DNA from: Dehalococcoidia bacterium
GTDB taxonomy: Bacteria > Chloroflexota > Dehalococcoidia > UBA2979
NCBI GenBank assembly: GCA_964291495.2
Contig: OZ219872.1
Span: 832,001-896,000 of the forward strand
Direction: 5' to 3'
DNA length: 64,000 bases
Part shown: one piece after another, positions 454-62,320 of the stretch
How positions within the stretch are numbered: the first letter of the stretch is position 1
Layout of the letters: every line of letters begins with the position of its first letter
Position numbers and translations under genes: made by a program
The notes under the pieces: generated by a model
The model's input: the letters and a program-made list of their open reading frames with translations, nothing else
Databases searched by the model: none
What the model was told of the DNA's origin: nothing

Positions 454-2841
454 GTGGTTCAGGTTCCGGCCATGCAGCCATTCCTGGAGGCGCGCTCGGC
501 AGTCGCCGGGCGCGCCTTTGCGCGTCCCCTGGACAGGGCCGGCCTCGCACTCTGCCACGAGCTGAGCGACGCGCTCGACGCGAGCCTGCGCGCGCTCGCC
601 AACGCCCTGCCGCCGCAGGGCGTCGCCATCGTCGCGGTCGGCAGTAGCGGACGCCGCGAGCAGTGCCGCCACTCCGACATCGACGTGATGCTGCTCTTCG
701 ACCGTCAGCCGGAGCGCTGGGTCAGCGAGGCCATGCTCTACCCGCTGTGGGACAGCGGCCTGCAGGTGGGCCACTCCGTGCGCACACTGCGCCAGATCGG
801 ACCGGCGGCCCGCGACAGCATGCAGACCTTCACCGCGCTCCTCGATGCGCGCCTCGTCGCCGGCGACGAGGCGCTCTTCGAGCGCTTCCACAAGGGCTGG
901 CGCAAGACGGTGCGCGGCGGGCGCGACTGGATGCGCGAGGAGCTGGCCGCGGCGCACGAGGCGAGGCTCGCGCGCGAGCCCTGGCAACTGCTGGAGCCCG
1001 ACCTGAAGACCAGCCGCGGCGGGCTCCGCTCGCTGCAGACCGCGCGCTGGCTCGACGCCACCCGGGCGATCGCCGAGGGAGGCGAGGCGCCCGAGCCCGA
1101 ACCCGAGCTCACGGACGCGCGCGAGGTGCTGCTCGCGACGCGCAACGCGCTGCACTCGCTCGACGACCGCGCCAACGATCGGCTGCGCCGCGACCTGCTC
1201 GACGAGGTGACCGAGCGCCTCGCCGTCGATCGCACGGACTGGGGCCAGCGCGTCAGCGCCGCGATCCGCACGGTGGACACGGCAACCAGCGAGGCGCTGC
1301 GCGCCGCCGCCGCCTCCCGCAGCCGCCGCTGGAGCGGCTGGCTCCCTGGGCGGCGCGCGGCGGAGGGCGACGGCAGGCGCCGCGACGGCGCGCGCATGGA
1401 AGACGGCGGCGGCGACCTCGATCGGCTCCTCGCGGCGCTGCGCGAGGCGGGGCCCGGAGGACCGCTTGATCCGCTGCGGCGCAGCGCCTGGCTGGAGCGT
1501 CTGCTGCCGGAGTGGGAGGTACTGCGCAACCAGCCCCAGACCGCGCCGTTCCATACCCATCCGGCCGACGTCCACAGCTGGCGCGCGGTCAGCGAGGCGC
1601 TACGGCTGCTGGAGGACGACGACGAGTCCGGCGCGCCGGAGCCGGTCGCCGAGCTCGACGACGCCGACGATCTGCTGATCGCGGCGCTGCTGCACGACAT
1701 CGGCAAGGGGCACGAGGGCCCGCATAGCGAGGTCGGCGCGGTGATCGCCGAGCGCTTCGCCGACCGCGCCGGGCTCGGCGACGAGACCGCCGGGCTCCTC
1801 GCCGCCACCGTGCGCCACCACCTGCTGCTCCCCATGGTGGCGACGAGGCGCGACATCGCCGACGAACACGTGATCCGCGACGTCGCCGAGCAGGTCGGCG
1901 ACGTACGCACGCTCAACCTGCTCTACCTCGTCTCGGTCGCCGACGCCAAGGCGTGTGGATCCGAGGTGTGGAACGCCTGGACCGCCCAGCTCATGCGCTC
2001 GCTCTACACGCGCGTGCGCGAGGCGCTCTCCGATGTCTCGCTGCGCACCGCCGTCGCGCGGCGGCGGCGCGCGGCGGTCCAGGGTCTGAGCGGCTGGGTC
2101 GCGCCCCAGGCCGTGGAGAGGCACCTCGAGCAGATGCCGGTCAACTACCTGCTCTCGATGGAGCCACTCGCGATCGGGCGGCACATCGAGCTGATCGCTC
2201 AGGGCGTGCTGGACTCGCACGGCTCCCGCGCGAGGGGCGCCATGACGCCGATGCTGCACTACGACCGGCTCGGCTCGATCGACCGGCTGACGATCGTCAC
2301 GGCGGACCAGCCGGGCATCCTGCAGGCCGTCGCGGGCACGCTCACCGTGCACAATGTGAACGTGCTTGGCGGCACCGCCTTCACCCGCGACGACGGCATC
2401 GCCGTCGACGTGATGCACCTCGGCGATGCGCGCGGCCGGGAGATCGACGAGCGCCGCTGGGAGCGGATCATCGAGGCCGTCCCGAGCGCGCTCGCCGGCG
2501 AGTTCCCGATCGAGCAGCGCCTCGCCGAGACCCGCGAGGCCTACCGCGGCGAGCCGCCGGCGCCGATTCCCACCAGCGTCACCGTCGACAACACGGGCTC
2601 CGCGGATTACTCGATCCTCGAGATCCGCGCCGCCGACCGCCTCGGCCTGCTGCACGCGATCACCAACGTGCTCCACGAGTCGGGGCTGGACATCCACATG
2701 GCGAAGGTCAACACGCTCGGCCACGAGATCGTCGATGCCTTCTACGTGCGCCGCGCCAACGGGCGGCGCATCGAGGACGAGGACGAGATCGAGCGCCTCG
2801 CGGCGCACCTCACGGACGCGGTGCACGCCCTCGACGAGTAG
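454..2841 (+). CDS. glnD: [Protein-PII] uridylyl/adenylyltransferase (NTase, HD and two ACT domains); start may be ATG 472
   Basis: AVGSSGRRE..SDIDV nucleotidyltransferase motif, DLKTSRGGLR, LLHDIGKG HD motif, C-terminal ACT (DRLGLLHAIT..VDAFYV); adjacent to P-II. Confidence 0.9.
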   Translation: MVQVPAMQPFLEARSAVAGRAFARPLDRAGLALCHELSDALDASLRALANALPPQGVAIVAVGSSGRREQCRHSDIDVMLLFDRQPERWVSEAMLYPLWDSGLQVGHSVRTLRQIGPAARDSMQTFTALLDARLVAGDEALFERFHKGWRKTVRGGRDWMREELAAAHEARLAREPWQLLEPDLKTSRGGLRSLQTARWLDATRAIAEGGEAPEPEPELTDAREVLLATRNALHSLDDRANDRLRRDLLDEVTERLAVDRTDWGQRVSAAIRTVDTATSEALRAAAASRSRRWSGWLPGRRAAEGDGRRRDGARMEDGGGDLDRLLAALREAGPGGPLDPLRRSAWLERLLPEWEVLRNQPQTAPFHTHPADVHSWRAVSEALRLLEDDDESGAPEPVAELDDADDLLIAALLHDIGKGHEGPHSEVGAVIAERFADRAGLGDETAGLLAATVRHHLLLPMVATRRDIADEHVIRDVAEQVGDVRTLNLLYLVSVADAKACGSEVWNAWTAQLMRSLYTRVREALSDVSLRTAVARRRRAAVQGLSGWVAPQAVERHLEQMPVNYLLSMEPLAIGRHIELIAQGVLDSHGSRARGAMTPMLHYDRLGSIDRLTIVTADQPGILQAVAGTLTVHNVNVLGGTAFTRDDGIAVDVMHLGDARGREIDERRWERIIEAVPSALAGEFPIEQRLAETREAYRGEPPAPIPTSVTVDNTGSADYSILEIRAADRLGLLHAITNVLHESGLDIHMAKVNTLGHEIVDAFYVRRANGRRIEDEDEIERLAAHLTDAVHALDE

Positions 2842-2861
2842 GCGCGGGCTGGGCGAAGGGG

Positions 2862-3365
2862 TCAGGGCGCGCCGAAGGTGGCGTTGAGCCAGCCCGCCAG
2901 GCGCTCCGGGACGCCCTCCGGGTAGACGCGCCAGGCGCCGGCCAGCACCTCGGCCAGCGGCAGCCACCGCGCGGTGAACGAGTGCCCGCCCTCGTCGGCC
3001 GTCAGCGGCGCGAAGTCCCCGGGCGCCTCGCCCGGCGCGAACTCGACGAGGAACTCGAAGATCAGCTCATGCCCGGGCTCGCCCTGCAGCGTGAAGCGGT
3101 TCTCGAGCGCGCCGAGCAGCGCGCGAACCTCGACGGCTCTGCCCAGCTCCTCGCGGAACTCGCGCACGACGGCGTCGGCGGCCGCCTCGCCGAACTCGAT
3201 CTCCCCGCCGAGGGCGCGGTAGAAGGTCTCGCCCTTCACGCGGTCGTGCCCCTCGGCGAAGAGCAGGTGGTCCTCGCGCAGCAGCAACCCGATCGCCAGC
3301 GGCCGGATGCGCGGCGGCGGCGCTGCGGAAAACCCCTCGACTGGTGGCTGTGTCTGCTCGGGCAG
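2862..3365 (-). CDS. NUDIX hydrolase (start uncertain)
   Basis: Nudix box GGEIEFGEAAADAVVREFREELG. The only ATG (3476) abuts the divergent ccr start; a CTG at 3365 has GGAG 6 nt upstream. Confidence 0.8.
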   Translation of the reverse strand: MPEQTQPPVEGFSAAPPPRIRPLAIGLLLREDHLLFAEGHDRVKGETFYRALGGEIEFGEAAADAVVREFREELGRAVEVRALLGALENRFTLQGEPGHELIFEFLVEFAPGEAPGDFAPLTADEGGHSFTARWLPLAEVLAGAWRVYPEGVPERLAGWLNATFGAP

Positions 3366-3481
3366 CTTCGGCTCCGTCCCGTTCGCTCGCGGTGACCCGC
3401 GCTGCTCGGTAGGATACGCGGGCTCGCGGCCCGCGAGGACCGCGACACCTCGAAGCGACGGCGCGAACAGGAGCATGGACG

Positions 3482-4729
3482 ATGGCGATCGAGATCACGA
3501 ACGTCGGCGAGGCGCCACCCGTTGGCGAAGTCCCGGAGAAGATGCACGCCAGCCTGATCCGCGAGTCGCGGTTCGGCCAGCCGCGCGACGCCTTCGCGAT
3601 CGAGCAGATCGACGTGCCCGAGGTGGGACCGCGCCAGGTGCTGGTCTACGTGATGGCGGCGGGCACCAACTACAACAACGTCTGGGCCGCCCTCGGGACC
3701 CCGGTCAACGTGATCGACGCGCGCCGCCGCCAGGGCGCCGAGGAGGACTTCCACATCGGCGGCTCGGACGCCTCGGGCATCGTCTGGGCGGTCGGCGAGG
3801 AAGTCACGAACGTCAAGGTCGGCGACGAGGTCGTGCTCTCCTGCGGGATGTGGGACGAGGACGCCGCCGACATCGCGGCCGGCCGCGACCCGATGATGTC
3901 GAACACCAACAAGGTCTGGGGCTACGAGGAGAACTGGGGCTCCTTCGCGCAGTACTGCCTCGTCGACCGCTACCAGTGCTACCCCAAGCCCCCGCACCTC
4001 AGCTGGGAGGCCGCCGCCGCCTACATGCTCGTCGGCGCGACCGCCTGGCGGATGCTGCGCGGCTGGCCGCCCAACGTCGTTAACGAGGGCGACCCTGTGC
4101 TGGTCTGGGGCGGCGCGGGCGGCCTCGGCTGCATGGCGATCCAGATCGTGCGCGAGTTCGGCGGCGTCCCGATCGCCGTCGTCTCCGACGAGTCGAAGTA
4201 CGAGTTCTGCTACCAGCTCGGCGCGAAGGGCGTGATCAACCGCCGCGACTTCGACCACTGGGGCCGCCTCCCCGACATCGACGACCCCGACGCGTTCGCC
4301 GAGTGGGCGAACGGCGCGCGCCAGTTCGGGCGCGCCTTCTGGGACGCCCTCGGCGAGCGGCGCAACCCGATGCTCGTCTTCGACCACCCGGGCGAGGCGA
4401 CGATCCCGACCTCGATCTTCCTCGTCGACAACGGCGGGATGGTGGTGATCTGCGCGGGCACCTCCGGCTACAACGCGGACGTGGACCTGCGCTACCTGTG
4501 GATGCGCCAGAAGCGCTTCCAGGGATCGCACTTCGCCAACGTCGAGGAGTGCGCCGAGTTCAACGACTACGTCGTGCAGGGCCGCATCGACCCCGCGCTC
4601 TCGCGCGTCTTCGCCTTCGAGGACGTCGGCGAGAGCCACCAGTTGATGTACGAGAACGAGCACCCGCCGGGCAACATGGCAATCCTCGTCGGCGCCCCTC
4701 GCGAGGGCCTGACGGAGTTCCCGCCCTAG
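3482..4729 (+). CDS. ccr: Crotonyl-CoA carboxylase/reductase
   Basis: MDR family with Ccr-typical [59 protein letters not shown]. Confidence 0.9.
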
Positions 4730-56701: not shown

Positions 56702-57547
56702 CTAGAAGATGAGGTTCGTGAGCCGCTGGCGGTAGCGGCGCGTCAACTCGGCGCCGTCGCCCAGCAGCGTGAAGGCGTCCAGCATGCGCAGCCGCCCGCC
56801 GTCGTCGGCGACCCCGCGGTCGAGTCGCACGGTCGCCAGCAGGTGCTCGAGGGCGTCCTGCCACTCACCCGCCGCCGCCAGCAGGCAGCCGAGCCGGTAG
56901 TGCGCCTCGGCGTCGTCCGGGTTCGCCTCCAGCCTCGCCTCGAGGGCCTCGCGCGGCTGGTCCCCGGCTTCGTCGCGAAACGCGAGCCGCGCGAGGACGC
57001 GCGCGGCGGCGGGGTCGCCGGGAAAGCGTGCGGCCAACTCGCGGGCGCGGGCGACCTCGCCCTCATCGAGCAGGATCGCGGCGAGCGCCGCCGAGGCGCC
57101 GCGATGGTCGGGATCCTGCTCCAGCGCGTGCTCCAGGTGCAGCCGCGCGGCGCCCGGCTGGTCCATGCGCAGCGCGTGCTCGGCGGCGGCGACGGCCTGG
57201 TCGGCGGCGCTTGGCACGAGCGAGTCGAAGAACCCTCGGACCTGCGGCTCGGGGAGCGCGCCGACGAACTCGCTCACGACCTCGCCGTTGTGGAAGGCCT
57301 TGACCGCGGGGATGCCCTGCACCTGGTAGCTGGAGGCCACGCCGGGGTTCTCGTCGACGTTGATCTTGACGAGCTGCACCTCGCCAGCGCGTTCGTAGGC
57401 GATCGTCTCGAGGGTGGGGCCGAGCACGCGGCAGGGACCGCACCAGGGCGCCCAGAAGTCGACCACCACCGGCAGCTGATGTGAGCGCTCGATTACGTCC
57501 GTCGCGAACGTCGCGTCGCTCGCCTCCAGCACCGCCCCCGCCGTCAT
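56702..57547 (-). CDS. Thioredoxin-TPR chaperedoxin (YbbN/CnoX-like)
   Basis: VDFWAPWCGPC thioredoxin domain, TPR region, C-terminal YRQRLTNLIF. Confidence 0.88.
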   Translation of the reverse strand: MTAGAVLEASDATFATDVIERSHQLPVVVDFWAPWCGPCRVLGPTLETIAYERAGEVQLVKINVDENPGVASSYQVQGIPAVKAFHNGEVVSEFVGALPEPQVRGFFDSLVPSAADQAVAAAEHALRMDQPGAARLHLEHALEQDPDHRGASAALAAILLDEGEVARARELAARFPGDPAAARVLARLAFRDEAGDQPREALEARLEANPDDAEAHYRLGCLLAAAGEWQDALEHLLATVRLDRGVADDGGRLRMLDAFTLLGDGAELTRRYRQRLTNLIF

Positions 57548-57694
57548 CGCCCTCGCCCCCTCCGCCGCGCGTCCCGTGCGCCAAGCCTACCGCGAGGGCG
57601 CGCGCCGGGCACGCCGTGAGCGCAAGCGGGCGCTCCGCTAGGATGCGCCCGAACGTGGACACTGCGTGACACTGAGCGGGAGACGGGGGCCAGG

Positions 57695-58546
57695 ATGCGC
57701 TTCGGAGTGACGGTCGACTTCAACGAGCAGCCGGTGACCTCGCCGGAGTTCCTCGCCGGGTTCGCCCAGGCCGCCGAGGACTGCGGCTTCGACACCCTCT
57801 GGACCAGCGACCACGTCGTGATCCCGCAGGACCACAGCTCGGACTACCCCTACGCCGAGCGCATGCCCTACGAGGAGGCGCCGATCCCCGACCCGATCGT
57901 GACGCTCACCTTCGTCGCCGCGAAGACGAAGACCATCCGCCTCGGCACCTCGGTGCTGGTGCTGCCGCAGCGCAACCCGGTCGTGCTCGCCAAGCAACTC
58001 GCCTCGCTCGACGTCTACTCCGAGGGCCGCGTCGACCTCGGCATCGGCGTGGGCTGGCTGCGCGAGGAGTTCGAGGCGATCGGCGTGCCCTGGGAGCGCC
58101 GCGGCAAGCGCACGGACGAGTGCATCGAGGCAATGCGCGCGCTCTGGACGCAGTCGGTCGCGAGCTACGAGGGCGAGCTGGTGCGCTTCTCCAACGTCGT
58201 CTGCGACCCCAAGCCCGTCCAGCCGGGTGGGGTGCCGTTCATCATCGGTGGGCACTCGATGGCCGCGGCGCGGCGCGCCGGGAAGTATGGCAGCGGCTTC
58301 TTCCCGCACGTCTTCGGCCGCGCCTGGCACGAGCTGATCGCGGAGGCGCGACGGACCGCCGAGGCGCACGGCCGCGACCCCGACGAGGTCGAGATCAGCG
58401 CCGGCGTGCCGCCGGAGCTGGAGCTGGCGCAGCGCCTCGGGGAGCTCGGCGTCTCGCGCCTGAACATCCTGATCACGGACCCGGACGTGCCGTCCGCGCG
58501 GCGAACGCTGGAGCGCATCTCCCGCGACCTGATCGCGCGCATGTAG
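57695..58546 (+). CDS. LLM class (putative F420-dependent) oxidoreductase
   Basis: GFDTLWTSDHVV, IRLGTSVLVLPQRNPVVLAKQLASLD, GVGWLREEF. Confidence 0.92.
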   Translation: MRFGVTVDFNEQPVTSPEFLAGFAQAAEDCGFDTLWTSDHVVIPQDHSSDYPYAERMPYEEAPIPDPIVTLTFVAAKTKTIRLGTSVLVLPQRNPVVLAKQLASLDVYSEGRVDLGIGVGWLREEFEAIGVPWERRGKRTDECIEAMRALWTQSVASYEGELVRFSNVVCDPKPVQPGGVPFIIGGHSMAAARRAGKYGSGFFPHVFGRAWHELIAEARRTAEAHGRDPDEVEISAGVPPELELAQRLGELGVSRLNILITDPDVPSARRTLERISRDLIARM

Positions 58547-58621
58547 CCGCTCGCCCGCCTCGCCCGTACGGGCCTGTCGTAGTGCCATACGGTGCTGACG
58601 CGTTCGTGCTAGGATAGCGCC

Positions 58622-58906
58622 ATGGCAGTGGCATTCGACACGCTGAAGGCAGCCACCCAGCTCCAGGAAGCAGGCTTCCGGGAGACGCAGGCGCACGCCC
58701 TCGTCACCATCCTTGCCGAGGTAGCGAACGAAACTCCGGGGGAAAGACCGAGTTCGACAAGCTCGAGCCCTCGCTGGGGACGCGCAGAGTGCGCCGCTCT
58801 GTGCGCCGAGATGCGAGTCATGAAGCGAGACATCATCATCCCGCTCGGGAGGCTCTACATCGTCATGACCGGGCTCATCGTCGCCGCCACCAGCGTGTTC
58901 GGCTAG
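58622..58906 (+). pseudogene. DUF1640/CCDC90-like small protein, apparently degenerate
   Basis: FDTLKAATQLQEAGF..QAHAL N-terminus and hydrophobic C-terminus; the expected K-T-E-F-D-K-L-E coil segment is in another frame. Confidence 0.6.
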
Positions 58907-58934
58907 CAGGCCGCGCCAACCCCACACGTCGCGC

Positions 58935-58972
58935 TCGCACCGCCCCCCGCCGACGGCGGGCTAGCCGTGCTG
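58935..58972 (-). other. Putative SECIS element for the TGA at 58973-58975
   Basis: mRNA after UGA: 12 nt, then CCCGCC-GUC-GGCGGG stem-loop; lower stem GCACGGCU pairs with GGCGGUGC. Confidence 0.6.
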
Positions 58973-59269
58973 TCAGGTCGGCTGATGGCGGTGGTCGGCG
59001 GAAACCGTGAAGCGGCGCCAGAAGAACAGGAAGCGCTCCGCATCGACCCTCACCGCGCTCGCCCACTGCAGCAGCGCGGGCGCGACGTGGACCGTCAGGT
59101 CGCGGTGCCGGACGGTTTCGTAGCGGGTGAGGTTCTTGCCCTTGAGGTAGGTGTCGACCGGCACATCGAGGACGCCTCGTCAGCCGAGCGGGCGAATGAA
59201 ATCGAGCGCCAGCTCGCCGCCCCGGCGCCGCGCCAGCTCGGCCGCCTCAGCCGTGATCTCGATCTCCAT
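58961..59269 (-). CDS. Candidate HesB/IscA-like selenoprotein (102 aa) with two in-frame TGA codons (U30, U99)
   Basis: ATG 59269 with GAGGG upstream reads MEIEITAEAAELARRRGGELALDFIRPLG-TGA-RGVLD, in frame with ORF 58973..59164, ending HRHQPT-TGA-QHG-TAG; SECIS-like hairpins follow both TGAs. Confidence 0.75.
59144..59179 (-). other. Putative SECIS element for the TGA at 59180-59182
   Basis: mRNA after UGA: GAGG...GUGCC-GGUC-GACAC...CCUC, with a GGUC loop at +21 to +24. Confidence 0.5.
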
Positions 59270-59292
59270 GCGGCCCTCGGGGGTCCGTCGCG

Positions 59293-60192
59293 TCAGCCCG
59301 ACTTGGCCTCGGCAAGGTAGTCCTCGCCGAAGCGGCGCATCAGGTCCGGCGCGTCGAGCAGCTCCCTCGGGTGCAGACCGACGATCGCGTGATCGACGCC
59401 CGCCTCGCGGGCCCGCCCCAGCCGCTCCCGCACCTGCTCCAGCCGATCGCTCGCGAGGAGCGCAATGCCGGTCATCGCGATCACGAGCGCGTCGGGGTCG
59501 CGCCCGGCGCGCTCGGCCGCCTCGCGGGCGGGTTGCATCGCCTCCCCGGCGTTGTCGAGGTAGTTGCCGTGCGTGAGCCAGCCGTCTGCCATTTCGCCGA
59601 TGCGGCGCATCTGCTGCGGGCTGTCGCCGCCGATCCAGATCGGCACGTGACGCGGCGGGTGCGGCCGCGAGGTCCAGCCGTCGACCTCGTAGGTGTCGCC
59701 CTCGAAGCCGTCGACCCAGTCCTCGGTCCAGAGCTTTCGCGTCAGCTCCAGGCTCTCCTCGAAGCGCGCGCCGCGGCGGTCCGAGGGCATGCCGAGCACC
59801 TCGAACTCCTCCTTCGCCCAGCCCATGCCCGCGCCGAGGATGAAGCGCCCGCCGGCGAGGTGGTCGAGCGTGGCCATGATCTTCGCGTGCAGCACCGCCT
59901 GCCGCATGTTCAGCACCAGCACCGCCACGCCGAGCTGCACGCGGCTCGTCGCGCCCGCGACGAACGCCAGCTCGGTCAGCGGCTCCAGCAGCGAGGCGTC
60001 GATGTGCACCCGGCCCGGCAGGTTGCCGTCCGCGCTGTACGGGTAGCGCGAGCGGTACTCGCGAGGGAAGACGACGTGGTCGTTGGTCCAGAGCGAGTCG
60101 AAGCCGGCCTCCTCGGCGGCGCGGGCGTGGCGCAGCACCACCTCGCGGGTGGCGCGATCGCCGGCCTGGGGGAGCAGGATGCCTACGTCCAC
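59293..60192 (-). CDS. LLM class (putative F420-dependent) oxidoreductase
   Basis: AEEAGFDSLWTNDHVV, VQLGVAVLVL, LDHLAGGRFILGAGMGW..EF. Confidence 0.92.
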   Translation of the reverse strand: MDVGILLPQAGDRATREVVLRHARAAEEAGFDSLWTNDHVVFPREYRSRYPYSADGNLPGRVHIDASLLEPLTELAFVAGATSRVQLGVAVLVLNMRQAVLHAKIMATLDHLAGGRFILGAGMGWAKEEFEVLGMPSDRRGARFEESLELTRKLWTEDWVDGFEGDTYEVDGWTSRPHPPRHVPIWIGGDSPQQMRRIGEMADGWLTHGNYLDNAGEAMQPAREAAERAGRDPDALVIAMTGIALLASDRLEQVRERLGRAREAGVDHAIVGLHPRELLDAPDLMRRFGEDYLAEAKSG

Positions 60193-60236: not shown

Positions 60237-61181
60237 CTAGCGAAGCAGCGCCGAGCCCGGTGGCACATGGTGTTCGATCTCGCCCTGATGGTCGAGCAGG
60301 ATCACCCGGGAGCGGAAGCGCCAGACGCCGTCGACGCGCTCGAACGCGTCGTGGTAGCGGCCGGCCGCGATGATCTGAATCGGCAGCTCGCGGGTCGCCA
60401 GCGTGACGGTGAAGTAGGAGCGCGCCGTCGCCGTCCCGGCGTCCTCGTCCGGCTCGATCAGCACGTTGGTCGTGACGTGCTTCGTGCGCGGGCTGCCGTC
60501 GTGCAGGCGGAAGCTGCTGCGCAACGCCTCGGCCAGCTCCGGTCCGCCCAGCGGCGTCCCCTCCACCCCGTGCTGCCGCCCGCCGTGCGCGAAGACCTCA
60601 CCGGCCCCCTCGAAGTCGCCGAGGTCGATCCGCTCCGCGTAGGTGAAGATCAGCGTCTCGACCGCTGCGTGGACCTCCTCGGGGACGGGCATCGGCGGCA
60701 CGTCCTCGAGCGGCGGCCCCAACACCTCGATGTCGTACGGCAGCTCGCCGATCTCGTAGCCCCGGATGTGCTGCGTGAGGTCGCCGCGCGTATCGAGCAT
60801 CGTGAGGCGGTCCGTGAACCACCACCCGCCGTCGATGCGCTCGAACTGGTCGTAGTAGCGGCCGCTGCCAAGCAGTCGCAAGCGCATGGTCGGCGTCGCC
60901 TGGAAGAGCGTGAAGTAGGAGCGTGCGCGGGCCGTACCGGCCTCCTCGTCGACGTCGATCATGATGTTGGTCGTCATGTGGCGCGTGCCCGGCGAGCCGT
61001 CGTGCAGGAGGAGCCGCCGCTTGCGATTCTCGGCCATCTGCGCGCCGGCGTGCGCGGCCCCGAGGCTCGAGCGGAACGGCCCATGCGTGAAGATCTCGCC
61101 GACCGCGTCGTGGTCGCCGAGATCGGTGAAGCGCGCGTAGCGCAGCATCACGTCGCGGATCTCGTCGCGGCTGTCCGTCAT
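60237..61181 (-). CDS. Tandem double SnoaL-like/NTF2 domain protein
   Basis: Two internal repeats of YA..D.GD..F..G / DGSP.T.H.TTN / TA.ARSYFT / GRY.D.FER.DG.W.F. Confidence 0.85.
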   Translation of the reverse strand: MTDSRDEIRDVMLRYARFTDLGDHDAVGEIFTHGPFRSSLGAAHAGAQMAENRKRRLLLHDGSPGTRHMTTNIMIDVDEEAGTARARSYFTLFQATPTMRLRLLGSGRYYDQFERIDGGWWFTDRLTMLDTRGDLTQHIRGYEIGELPYDIEVLGPPLEDVPPMPVPEEVHAAVETLIFTYAERIDLGDFEGAGEVFAHGGRQHGVEGTPLGGPELAEALRSSFRLHDGSPRTKHVTTNVLIEPDEDAGTATARSYFTVTLATRELPIQIIAAGRYHDAFERVDGVWRFRSRVILLDHQGEIEHHVPPGSALLR

Positions 61182-61228: not shown

Positions 61229-62194
61229 TCAAGCGCCCGAGGCGCCGCCCGCGCGGAGGTGCGCGCTCAGGTCGCCCTCCATGTCGGTCTGGACGCGGCG
61301 CTCCGCGAAGCGCCAGACGCCGTCGACGCGCTCGAAGCGATCGCGGTAGCGCCCGCTGATGATCGGCTGAAGCGGCAACTCCGGCGTCTGCTGCAGCACG
61401 ACGAAATAGGAGCGCGCGAGGCCCGTTCCGGCGGCCTCGTCCACCTCGACGGCGACGTTGGTGGTGAGGTGCTTGGTGCGCGGGTTGCCCTCGTAGAGCC
61501 GGACTGCGCCGCGCAGGCCCTTCGCCAGCGCCTCGCCGCGCAGCGCGTAGCTCCTGCCGTCCTCCGTCTCGCCGACGAACGGCCCGTGCTCGAACAGCGC
61601 GCCGACGCCCTCGAAGTCCGCGAGGTCGATGCGCTCGGCGTAGGTGTAGATCAGCGCCTCGATCGCGTCGGCGGCGTCCGGGGGCGGCGGCAGCGGCCGC
61701 AGCTCGGCCGCGGACGGGCCGCGCAGCGCCAGCGCGGGCTGACGGCGCGGGGCGGCGCGCAGGAAGCCGCCGACATCGCCCGAGAGGTCGAAGATGCTGA
61801 CGCGCTCCTCGAAGCGCCACGCGCCGGCCTCGCGCACGAACTCGTCGTGGTAGCGGCCCGCGCCGACGACGCTGAGCGGCTCGCCGGGTGGCTGCTTGAG
61901 CATCGCGTAGTAGGAGCGGGCGCGGGCCGTGCCGGCCGCGGCGTCGATGTCGATCAGCAGGTTGGTCGTGAGGATGCGCGTGCGTGGCGTGCCGTCCTCG
62001 TGCAGGCGGATGCCGCGCGCGCGGTCGGCCGCAAGCTCGGCCCCGCCGAGCGAGCGACCCATCGTCGAGGAGAAGCGGCCCTTCGCGAAGAGCTTCCCGA
62101 TGCCCTCGAAGTCCGCGCCGTCCTGCAGCCGCGGGTAGGCGTGGACGAGCGCGACGATGGCGGCGCGGTCGGCGGCGAGACTCGCTGAGGACAT
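61229..62194 (-). CDS. Tandem double SnoaL-like/NTF2 domain protein (paralog of neighbour)
   Basis: Same duplicated motifs (YAERIDLADFEG, PRTKHLTTN, ARSYF, GRYRDRFERVDGVWRF). Confidence 0.85.
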   Translation of the reverse strand: MSSASLAADRAAIVALVHAYPRLQDGADFEGIGKLFAKGRFSSTMGRSLGGAELAADRARGIRLHEDGTPRTRILTTNLLIDIDAAAGTARARSYYAMLKQPPGEPLSVVGAGRYHDEFVREAGAWRFEERVSIFDLSGDVGGFLRAAPRRQPALALRGPSAAELRPLPPPPDAADAIEALIYTYAERIDLADFEGVGALFEHGPFVGETEDGRSYALRGEALAKGLRGAVRLYEGNPRTKHLTTNVAVEVDEAAGTGLARSYFVVLQQTPELPLQPIISGRYRDRFERVDGVWRFAERRVQTDMEGDLSAHLRAGGASGA

Positions 62195-62320
62195 CGGCGG
62201 CACGCTAGGCAGCGCCGCGCTCGCTCGTCAACCTCGCGGATCCTCGTGGCAGCGGCTGCGGGGTTCGCGCGGTAGGATGAGCGCCGCCGCGCGGGCGAAG
62301 CGCGGCGGGGGGTGATCACG

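Follow-up and report, generated by a model that had tools for sequence, protein, structure and literature searches.

A 64,000-nucleotide stretch of the genome of a Dehalococcoidia bacterium (GenBank assembly GCA_964291495.2, contig OZ219872.1, positions 832,001 to 896,000; hereafter the window) carries on its minus strand a short gene that appears to encode a protein with two selenocysteine (Sec) residues. Read from the ATG at 59269, the frame runs for 102 codons, with in-frame TGA at codons 30 and 99, and then reaches TAG; the translation is free of Cys. The ATG lies 23 nt past the TGA stop (59295-59293) of an upstream open reading frame (ORF, 59293..60192). A plain ORF list holds only 58973..59164, the 63-residue piece between the two TGAs with a GTG start, and this GTG "start" (59164) falls within the stem of the first of two hairpins that resemble Sec insertion sequences (SECIS). 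An earlier sequence-only reading of the window had picked out the hidden ATG frame, both TGA positions and the translation, had noted that standard gene calling recovers just the 63-residue fragment, and had placed hairpins with GGUC (+21) and GUC (+19) loops after the two TGAs. All of these statements match direct reading of the sequence, and its description of a 102-residue protein with two Sec codons and no Cys agrees with the frame and with the TGAs of homologues. The features of the gene are these:

58961..59269, minus strand: coding sequence of a predicted 102-residue double selenoprotein (ATG 59269-59267, TAG 58963-58961)
59274..59278, minus strand: GAGGG, a Shine-Dalgarno-like motif read from the sequence, 4 nt before the ATG
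59180..59182, minus strand: TGA codon 30 (TGA1), putative selenocysteine 1 in G-U-x-G; TGA in 35 of 35 distinct homologues
59149..59166, minus strand: SECIS-like element 1, a seven-position stem with a GGUC loop (59159-59156) and two mismatches in the window
58973..58975, minus strand: TGA codon 99 (TGA2), putative selenocysteine 2 in H-x-H-x-P-T-U-x-H; TGA in 33 of 35 homologues, TGC in 2
58946..58960, minus strand: SECIS-like element 2, stem CCCGCC/GGCGGG with a GUC loop (58954-58952), after the stop codon

Judged by its sequence and that of its homologues, the locus is a real, mis-annotated double selenoprotein gene. Our reading, to which we give a probability of about 85%, is that this is one gene in which both UGAs are decoded as Sec, each with its own downstream hairpin, and that the product is a two-Sec branch of the CC/Se-motif family with the fold of A-type iron-sulfur (Fe-S) carriers. 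Both in-frame UGAs would be decoded by the organism's SelA, SelB, SelD and tRNA-Sec, the first served by a hairpin within the coding sequence and the second by one just past the stop. Public databases hold the gene in pieces. A word-index search of 5.8 billion proteins with a family profile returned 117 homologues, 113 of which are fragments of 57-69 residues that begin just past TGA1 and end at TGA2 or at the real stop. The other four (P0002, P0003, P0089 and P0118) are longer calls, made under other genetic codes, which give full-length but erroneous products with Trp or Gly at both TGAs. Public annotation splits or shortens the gene, so that the true product is absent from protein databases, and its systematic mis-annotation as 57-69-residue fragments appears to be a new observation.

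Conservation of the TGA codons and their hairpins

The genome that contains the window (8 contigs, 3.08 Mb) has the full set of Sec genes that were looked for: selB (301.7 bits), selA (523.6 bits), selD (368.3 bits) and tRNA-Sec (77 bits), each above its curated cut-off. The selD gene (L010, G000:C5:1608812-1609747, minus strand) is itself a selenoprotein gene, with one in-frame TGA in the motif G-G-U-A-G-K.

Homologues were collected by a six-frame search of 61 related genomes and by a pattern scan of one genome per species. The six-frame search gave 15 strong places in 14 of the 61 genomes (E 1e-64 to 9e-32, 57-98% identity), all 15 with the two TGAs at the same places, and one further weak place (E 0.001). 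While selA lies above its cut-off in all 14 strong-match genomes, it does so in 50 of the 61 overall, a distribution that is consistent with Sec decoding but non-discriminating. The pattern scan added 35 more loci, from records of Dehalococcoidia/Chloroflexota metagenome-assembled genomes (MAGs) and of Acidimicrobiia MAGs. Once identical copies were removed, 35 distinct genes remained, at 44-95% protein identity. Two loci of one genome (L030 and L036, on contigs C3 and C4 of G017) are identical throughout the gene, its upstream sequence and the hairpin region 3' of it; they reflect either a recent duplication event or a duplicate made in assembly.

Among the 35 distinct genes, the first site is always TGA and the second is TGA except in L066 and L067, which have TGC (Cys). 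Ahead of TGA1, residues A9, G17, G18, A21, D23, F24 and P27 are invariant, and A9, G17, G18, A21 and P27 are each written with 3-4 codons across homologues. These positions belong to a 29-residue stretch that would go untranslated were the called ORF the gene; its conservation, with synonymous variation, indicates selection at the protein level. Past TGA2, a His occupies position +2 in 35 of 35 genes (CAC in 28, CAT in 7) and is followed by the stop directly or after one more residue. The sequence comparison thus indicates that the protein is under selection before and after each TGA. With the N-terminal 29 residues and the His two past Sec99 conserved, the sel genes present and TGA or Cys at both sites, none of the findings that the sequence-only reading had named as refuting it turned up.

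Cys versions of the protein also exist. Among 1.84 billion representatives, HMMER picked out 72 proteins, named "hypothetical protein" in their source records, and of the 14 that were retrieved seven are full-length homologues with Cys at both sites (P0119-P0123, P0126 and P0131). P0119, for example, reads A-C-G-G at the first site and H-R-H-S-S-A-C-G-H at its end, and the cluster of P0131 includes two members from Actinomycetota records. Of the remaining seven, the fragments P0125 and P0134 carry Cys at site 2, and five are either fragmentary or C-terminally divergent. Across homologues, TGA or Cys stands at both sites. The only invariant columns of a 31-sequence alignment are A9, G17, G18, A21, D23, U/C30, Y50 and U/C99, and H93, H95 and H101, which surround Sec99, are conserved in all aligned Sec forms.

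These comparisons bear on the suggestion that there is no selenoprotein gene at all, the locus being a decayed pseudogene or the organism reading TGA as Trp or Gly. The four public calls that read both TGAs as W or G speak for it. Against it, the same two TGAs recur over 44-95% identity in two phyla with no other stop in the frame, the replacement in homologues is Cys and never Trp or Gly from a sense codon, and the Sec machinery is present. Moreover, TGA is an ordinary stop here: it ends the upstream gene and also many of the homologous genes themselves, 2-3 codons past the Sec codon, which excludes a code with TGA as Trp or Gly. We give this alternative next to no weight.

Under double Sec decoding, the hairpins are the next element to be accounted for. 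Bacterial SECIS models place an apical loop with G or GU about 16-37 nt from the UGA, and both loops of the window fall within that range, the GGUC loop beginning 21 nt after TGA1 and the GUC loop 19 nt after TGA2. At hairpin 1, codons 36-39 (GTG-NCG-GTC-GAC) are identical in all 35 genes, synonymous positions included. Other invariant residues are written with 2-4 codons, and A9, G18, A21, P27 and G32 with four each. The 19 genes that have TCG within this stretch form a perfect 7 bp stem, AGGUGUC/GACACCU, around GGUC, and L067 shows one compensatory change in the stem, from G-C to C-G. In the window, element 1 as a candidate SECIS rests on this nucleotide conservation and on its perfect form in relatives.

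Hairpin 2, whose stem in the RNAfold structure reaches 58937-58970, varies in sequence. Each of the 33 TGA2 forms has a hairpin of at least 5 pairs, and its loop begins 18 to 23 nt after the TGA at either stop distance, 6 or 9 nt, although pairs were counted outward from the loop by a script that chose the best hairpin for each sequence and is thus biased to pairing. The upper stems fall into 13 distinct sequences, in which pairs 3-7 may be GC, CG, AU or UA. The loops of the 33 are GUC (15), GGU (5), GUU (4), GGUC (3) and six others, and 31 contain GU. A base rate was taken from 20,000 random TGA triplets of this genome: 5.6% are followed by a hairpin of at least 5 pairs with GT in the loop, and 21 (0.1%) by one with at least 6 perfect pairs, a GTC or GGTC loop and a loop start at +16 to +25. 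The window's hairpin 2 belongs to this strict class. Two alignment-based treatments were set aside. When MAFFT and RNAalifold were applied to the 42 nt that follow TGA2, the divergent hairpins were misaligned and only 4 pairs were recovered; pieces centred on the loop, again aligned with MAFFT, still had their 5' arms displaced where the loop was 4 nt long. Both hairpins that the sequence-only reading proposed find support, the second in covarying stems in 33 of 33 forms and the first in its nucleotide invariance, with covariation there not significant.

In many homologues (L032, L033, L048-L054, L058-L063 and L070) the real stop is another TGA, 6 or 9 nt past the Sec TGA and before the same hairpin. 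A Sec-UGA and a stop-UGA 6-9 nt apart before one hairpin amount to a natural test of how UGA-SECIS spacing separates insertion from termination.

Could TGA2 instead be the true stop, so that only TGA1 encodes Sec, the protein ends at Thr98, and the hairpin is a terminator shared with the convergent gene? The hairpin is indeed G+C-rich, follows the coding region and lies between convergent ORFs; 43% of the random genomic TGAs precede some hairpin of at least 5 pairs; and the Cys form L066 also has a hairpin. However, site 2 is TGC in L066 and L067 and Cys in the seven full-length and two fragment database homologues, and these Cys forms read on for 2-4 residues before their stop. The conserved His two codons past TGA2, with both CAC and CAT in use, would be unexplained, as would the steady distance from loop to TGA at either stop spacing, 6 or 9 nt. 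The hairpin is not followed by a T-run, and it is missing from the Cys form L067. Termination at TGA2 is, in our view, highly improbable.

Several observations weigh against the assignment of the hairpins and of the two Sec residues, and are best taken together. In the window's own clade hairpin 1 is mismatched at two positions (U.C and C.A), and in the window it is not the minimum-energy fold in RNAfold. Its covariation is not significant, 114 of 500 shuffles reaching the single compensatory change, since four of its seven pairs never vary. Folding-energy z-scores are unremarkable (+0.53 and -0.95 for the window's two hairpins), and folding energy against shuffles is non-significant for all four hairpins folded. 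A search of 58700-59500 for SECIS or other Rfam families (E up to 10) gave chance-level matches only. The minimum-energy fold of the selD SECIS presents a UCUC loop, not GGUC or GUC, so there is no simple loop consensus shared among the candidate elements of this genome. The Cys form L066 keeps a hairpin 2, and in the window this hairpin, given its place between convergent ORFs, could double as a terminator. Finally, Sec incorporation is a prediction from sequence comparison.

Predicted fold and family membership

With the 31-sequence alignment as input, AlphaFold2 gave a model with a mean predicted local distance difference test score (pLDDT) of 80.9, a predicted TM-score (pTM) of 0.72 and a low-confidence tail from about residue 91. 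When the model was submitted to Foldseek, ranks 1-11 were all chains of the SufA/IscA/HesB type, the best being 2d2a_A (E 8.8e-4, TMq 0.62), which was also the only chain below E 0.001. A VIA-align run against 48,161 chains returned 2d2a_B at Z 9.2 (root-mean-square deviation, RMSD, 2.7; 85 residues aligned), DsrR (2k4z) at 8.5, 1x0g at 8.4, 1r94 at 8.0, 2apn at 6.7, 2qgo at 5.6 and 2p2e at 5.5. All seven chains with Z of at least 5 thus have the IscA/SufA/HesB-type fold, and the next row is an unrelated chain at Z 3.1. On the strength of this model, the protein is predicted to have the fold of A-type Fe-S carriers.

The relation can also be followed in sequence profiles. An hhalign comparison with 12 PF01521 proteins of relatives gave a probability of 70.4% (E 3.9e-5, 85 columns) and placed Sec30 on the conserved Cys of G-G-C-S-G, which is the first conserved Cys of the PF01521 proteins. 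Past residue 91, Sec99 lies 8 residues on, and the C-A-C pair of the carriers lies 7 and 9 residues on; U-x-H would thus stand in the tail where the carriers of relatives have C-A-C, in a part of the protein that has low pLDDT and is outside the hhalign alignment. The genome has three ordinary PF01521 genes besides the selenoprotein gene. The label "HesB/IscA-like" given by the sequence-only reading therefore holds at the level of fold, with Sec30 on the first ligand Cys, and does not extend to sequence membership of PF01521 or TIGR01911.

As to family, the one match of the protein in NCBIfam is to NF041239, the "CC/Se motif family (seleno)protein" (Moor_selen_rel; E 5e-8, 32.9 bits). This match is below the curated 40-bit cut-off and covers residues 1-90 against positions 1-89 of the 91-position model; all 14 aligned close homologues match NF041239 as well, with a best E of 5e-8. 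The local Pfam copy, which lacks the PF28096 model, gave no match for the protein. PF28096 (CC_Se_fam) is, however, precomputed on 13 of the 117 database homologues, and Atlas clusters near P0119 carry it, on 94% of the members in the top cluster; the nearest cluster is named for the family. The sequence-only reading had not recognised a described family here, which the matches to NF041239 and, on homologues, to PF28096 contradict. By these sequence matches the protein is a divergent two-Sec branch, a sub-threshold relative, of the CC/Se-motif family NF041239 / PF28096. The "hypothetical protein DG" (GUxG motif, NF049953) was considered and rejected as unrelated: the best match to its model anywhere in the genome (E 0.68) is at another locus.

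An even draw of 401 genomes of the phylum has no NF041239 match over the cut-off. It does hold classic CC/Se forms, which read H-R-C-C-G-G with no TGA (L073 and L075-L077) or L-R-C-U-S-G with a TGA (L074 and L078). In MAFFT alignments, Sec30 falls against either the first or the second position of the CC/CU pair, an ambiguity of one residue, and the shared U-S-G favours Sec aligned on Sec. The first Sec accordingly seems, by sequence, to sit in the known motif of the CC/Se family. The table of 119 selenoprotein families in a 2026 review lists NF041239 with one Sec (PMC13188914), and that table has no two-Sec form of NF041239 and no other corresponding entry (PMC13188914). Neither the GOS paper nor the ISME J 2016 paper, both cited for NF041239, discusses the Moorella protein in its main text. 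Two features of the protein appear to be new: the additional Sec near the C-terminus, within H-x-H-x-P-T-U-x-H, and the link between the CC/Se family and the A-type-carrier fold. According to its description, BSepDB handles genes with two or more Sec and includes Dehalococcoidia, and the gene may already be recorded there.

The family is concentrated close to the window's organism. It is found in 13 of 36 other genomes of the family-level group and in 10 of 18 of the genus, and in 2 of the 401 genomes of the phylum draw, the window's own included. It is thus rare in the phylum outside its own family-level group, and it also occurs in several Acidimicrobiia MAGs. Small word shares with sequencing runs that are labelled sponge or marine metagenome are not taken here as a sign of habitat.

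Gene neighbourhood

The genes around the selenoprotein gene in the window are listed below.

59293..60192, minus strand: TIGR03619-family F420-dependent LLM-class oxidoreductase, the upstream neighbour at 23 nt (no functional link is implied)
60237-61181 and 61229-62203, minus strand: two tandem genes with two SnoaL-like domains each, upstream of the LLM oxidoreductase
56702-57547, minus strand: fusion of thioredoxin and tetratricopeptide (TPR) repeats; the selenoprotein gene lies about 1.4 kb upstream
57638-58927, minus strand (429 codons), and 58622-58906, plus strand (94 codons): overlapping downstream ORFs

Adjacency of the LLM oxidoreductase and the SnoaL-like genes is confined to 11 of the 35 gene copies, all of them from the window's own clade. 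The SnoaL-like domains of the tandem genes are similar to the ring-hydroxylating dioxygenase beta subunit. At four distant loci, LLM genes of weak similarity lie 1.6-2.9 kb off on the other strand. Elsewhere the neighbours are mutually unrelated and include GNAT, AhpC-like, pyridine nucleotide-disulfide oxidoreductase, alpha-amylase, adenosine deaminase, aconitase and class V aminotransferase genes. An all-against-all ORF clustering of the neighbourhoods was swamped by spurious G+C-rich frames. The two overlapping downstream ORFs are conserved only within the genus, and neither has a match in Pfam (E up to 1e-5) or NCBIfam (E up to 0.001). One contig from an RNA library, derived from a relative, spans 59111-59555 at about 92% likeness. 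It is at most a weak hint of co-transcription with the upstream gene, as the library may hold DNA.

Two single cases, both in distant homologues, deserve mention. At L071 the upstream same-strand neighbour (2359-3636, plus strand) is a class V aminotransferase, a family that includes cysteine desulfurases and selenocysteine lyases, and at L066 it is an aconitase (1517-3778, plus strand). Both are suggestive of Fe-S or selenium handling. Taken as a whole, the neighbouring genes do not decide between metal or cluster binding and a redox role.

Possible function and comparison with known systems

We infer a function as a metal, Fe-S or redox carrier. A-type carriers have three ligand Cys, one located at a G-C-x-G turn and two that form C-x-C in the C-terminal tail, and in IscA and SufA (1x0g, 2d2a) these Cys residues serve as ligands. 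By analogy, a flexible C-terminal tail would bring Sec99 and His101 next to Sec30, as it does the C-terminal Cys pair in IscA/SufA. His101 would take the place of the third Cys, and a metal ion or Fe-S cluster destined for transfer would be held by Sec30 and Sec99. Metal or cluster binding by Sec30, Sec99 and His101 has, in our estimate, slightly less than an even chance of being correct. His93 and His95 may add to the site, and the fuller proposal, that Sec30, Sec99 and His 93, 95 and 101 form a selenium/imidazole site with two selenolates on an A-type-carrier fold, is a tentative one with the odds somewhat against it. We know of no Fe-S or metal carrier for which such a ligand set has been described. 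If the proposal is true, the set would be kept in one Dehalococcoidia family and some Acidimicrobiia, with plain Cys/Cys and no His in distant homologues.

The same gene with the same two Sec could instead encode a redox protein. Sec30 and Sec99 would then be linked reversibly as a diselenide, or would pass through a selenenyl intermediate with a partner thiol, and the protein would serve as an oxidoreductase of low potential or as a relay for selenium or sulfur. According to the 2026 review (PMC13188914), redox functions are presumed for the majority of uncharacterised prokaryotic selenoproteins. An AhpC/TSA-like gene is found near L048 and a pyridine nucleotide-disulfide oxidoreductase gene near L054, and the thioredoxin-TPR gene lies downstream in the window itself; such neighbours vary by locus, however, and none is conserved. 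Distant Cys/Cys homologues keep the two Cys alone and have lost the His motif, which fits a two-residue pair. On the other hand, a plain dichalcogenide pair would not need the three conserved His around Sec99, and the relatives by fold are metal or cluster binders, not oxidoreductases. We regard a redox role as rather unlikely.

The case for a metal or cluster site is itself weakened on several counts. The distant homologues without the His motif tell against it, as does the confidence of the tail, with a mean pLDDT of 61 for residues 91-100 and 42 for residues 101-102. The hhalign alignment ends at residue 91, so that the C-terminal equivalence is one of position only. Neither PF01521 nor TIGR01911 (HesB-like selenoprotein) matches the protein at E up to 10, and among the homologue loci compared there is no conserved gene neighbourhood outside the genus. 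DsrR (2k4z), an IscA-like fold and the second-best structural match (RMSD 4.9, 94 aligned), is described as having no ligand Cys, and a shared fold is therefore in itself no proof of cluster binding.

How does the protein compare with selenoproteins already described? Double or near-C-terminal Sec is found in the UXX-star (NF041114/NF041211), MbdU (NF045648) and SaoC (NF040734) families, as entered in the 2026 review (PMC13188914). Going by those entries, they resemble the present protein in having two Sec in one small protein with the second 2-3 residues from the stop, an arrangement in which the SECIS for the second Sec must follow the stop codon; metal binding has been proposed for several of them (PMC13188914). 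They differ from it in fold and motifs, and their models give no match to it at E up to 10. The HesB-like selenoprotein of TIGR01911 is also of the HesB/IscA type and has its Sec followed by x-G in a glycine-rich turn, given as the motif UxGP in Table 1 of the review (PMC13188914). It has one Sec as against two here, and no C-terminal Sec/His tail is listed for it.

The CC/Se-motif family is closer. Its members are likewise proteins of about 100 residues, the homology extends over the whole model, and the Sec lies in the same short motif before a conserved E-V-S-V-D-T stretch. Here, however, Sec is preceded by Gly (27 of 35) or Ser (8 of 35) and never by Cys, so the CC/CU dipeptide of the family is absent, and the second Sec stands in a C-terminal H-x-H-x-P-T-U-x-H tail beyond the 91 positions of NF041239.

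With the A-type carriers IscA, SufA and ErpA (PF01521; 2d2a, 1x0g, 1r94 and 1s98), the protein appears to share its fold (Z 9.2-8.0, TM 0.52-0.62) at 13-22% identity in structural alignments. Its second chalcogen lies in the C-terminal tail at the offset of their C-terminal Cys pair. It differs from them in having Sec for Cys, U-x-H for C-x-C and an extra His pair upstream of Sec99. A family listed without known function would in this way gain a connection to the IscA/SufA fold, with Sec occupying the position of a ligand, which yields a testable hypothesis of selenolate-ligated metal or Fe-S binding.

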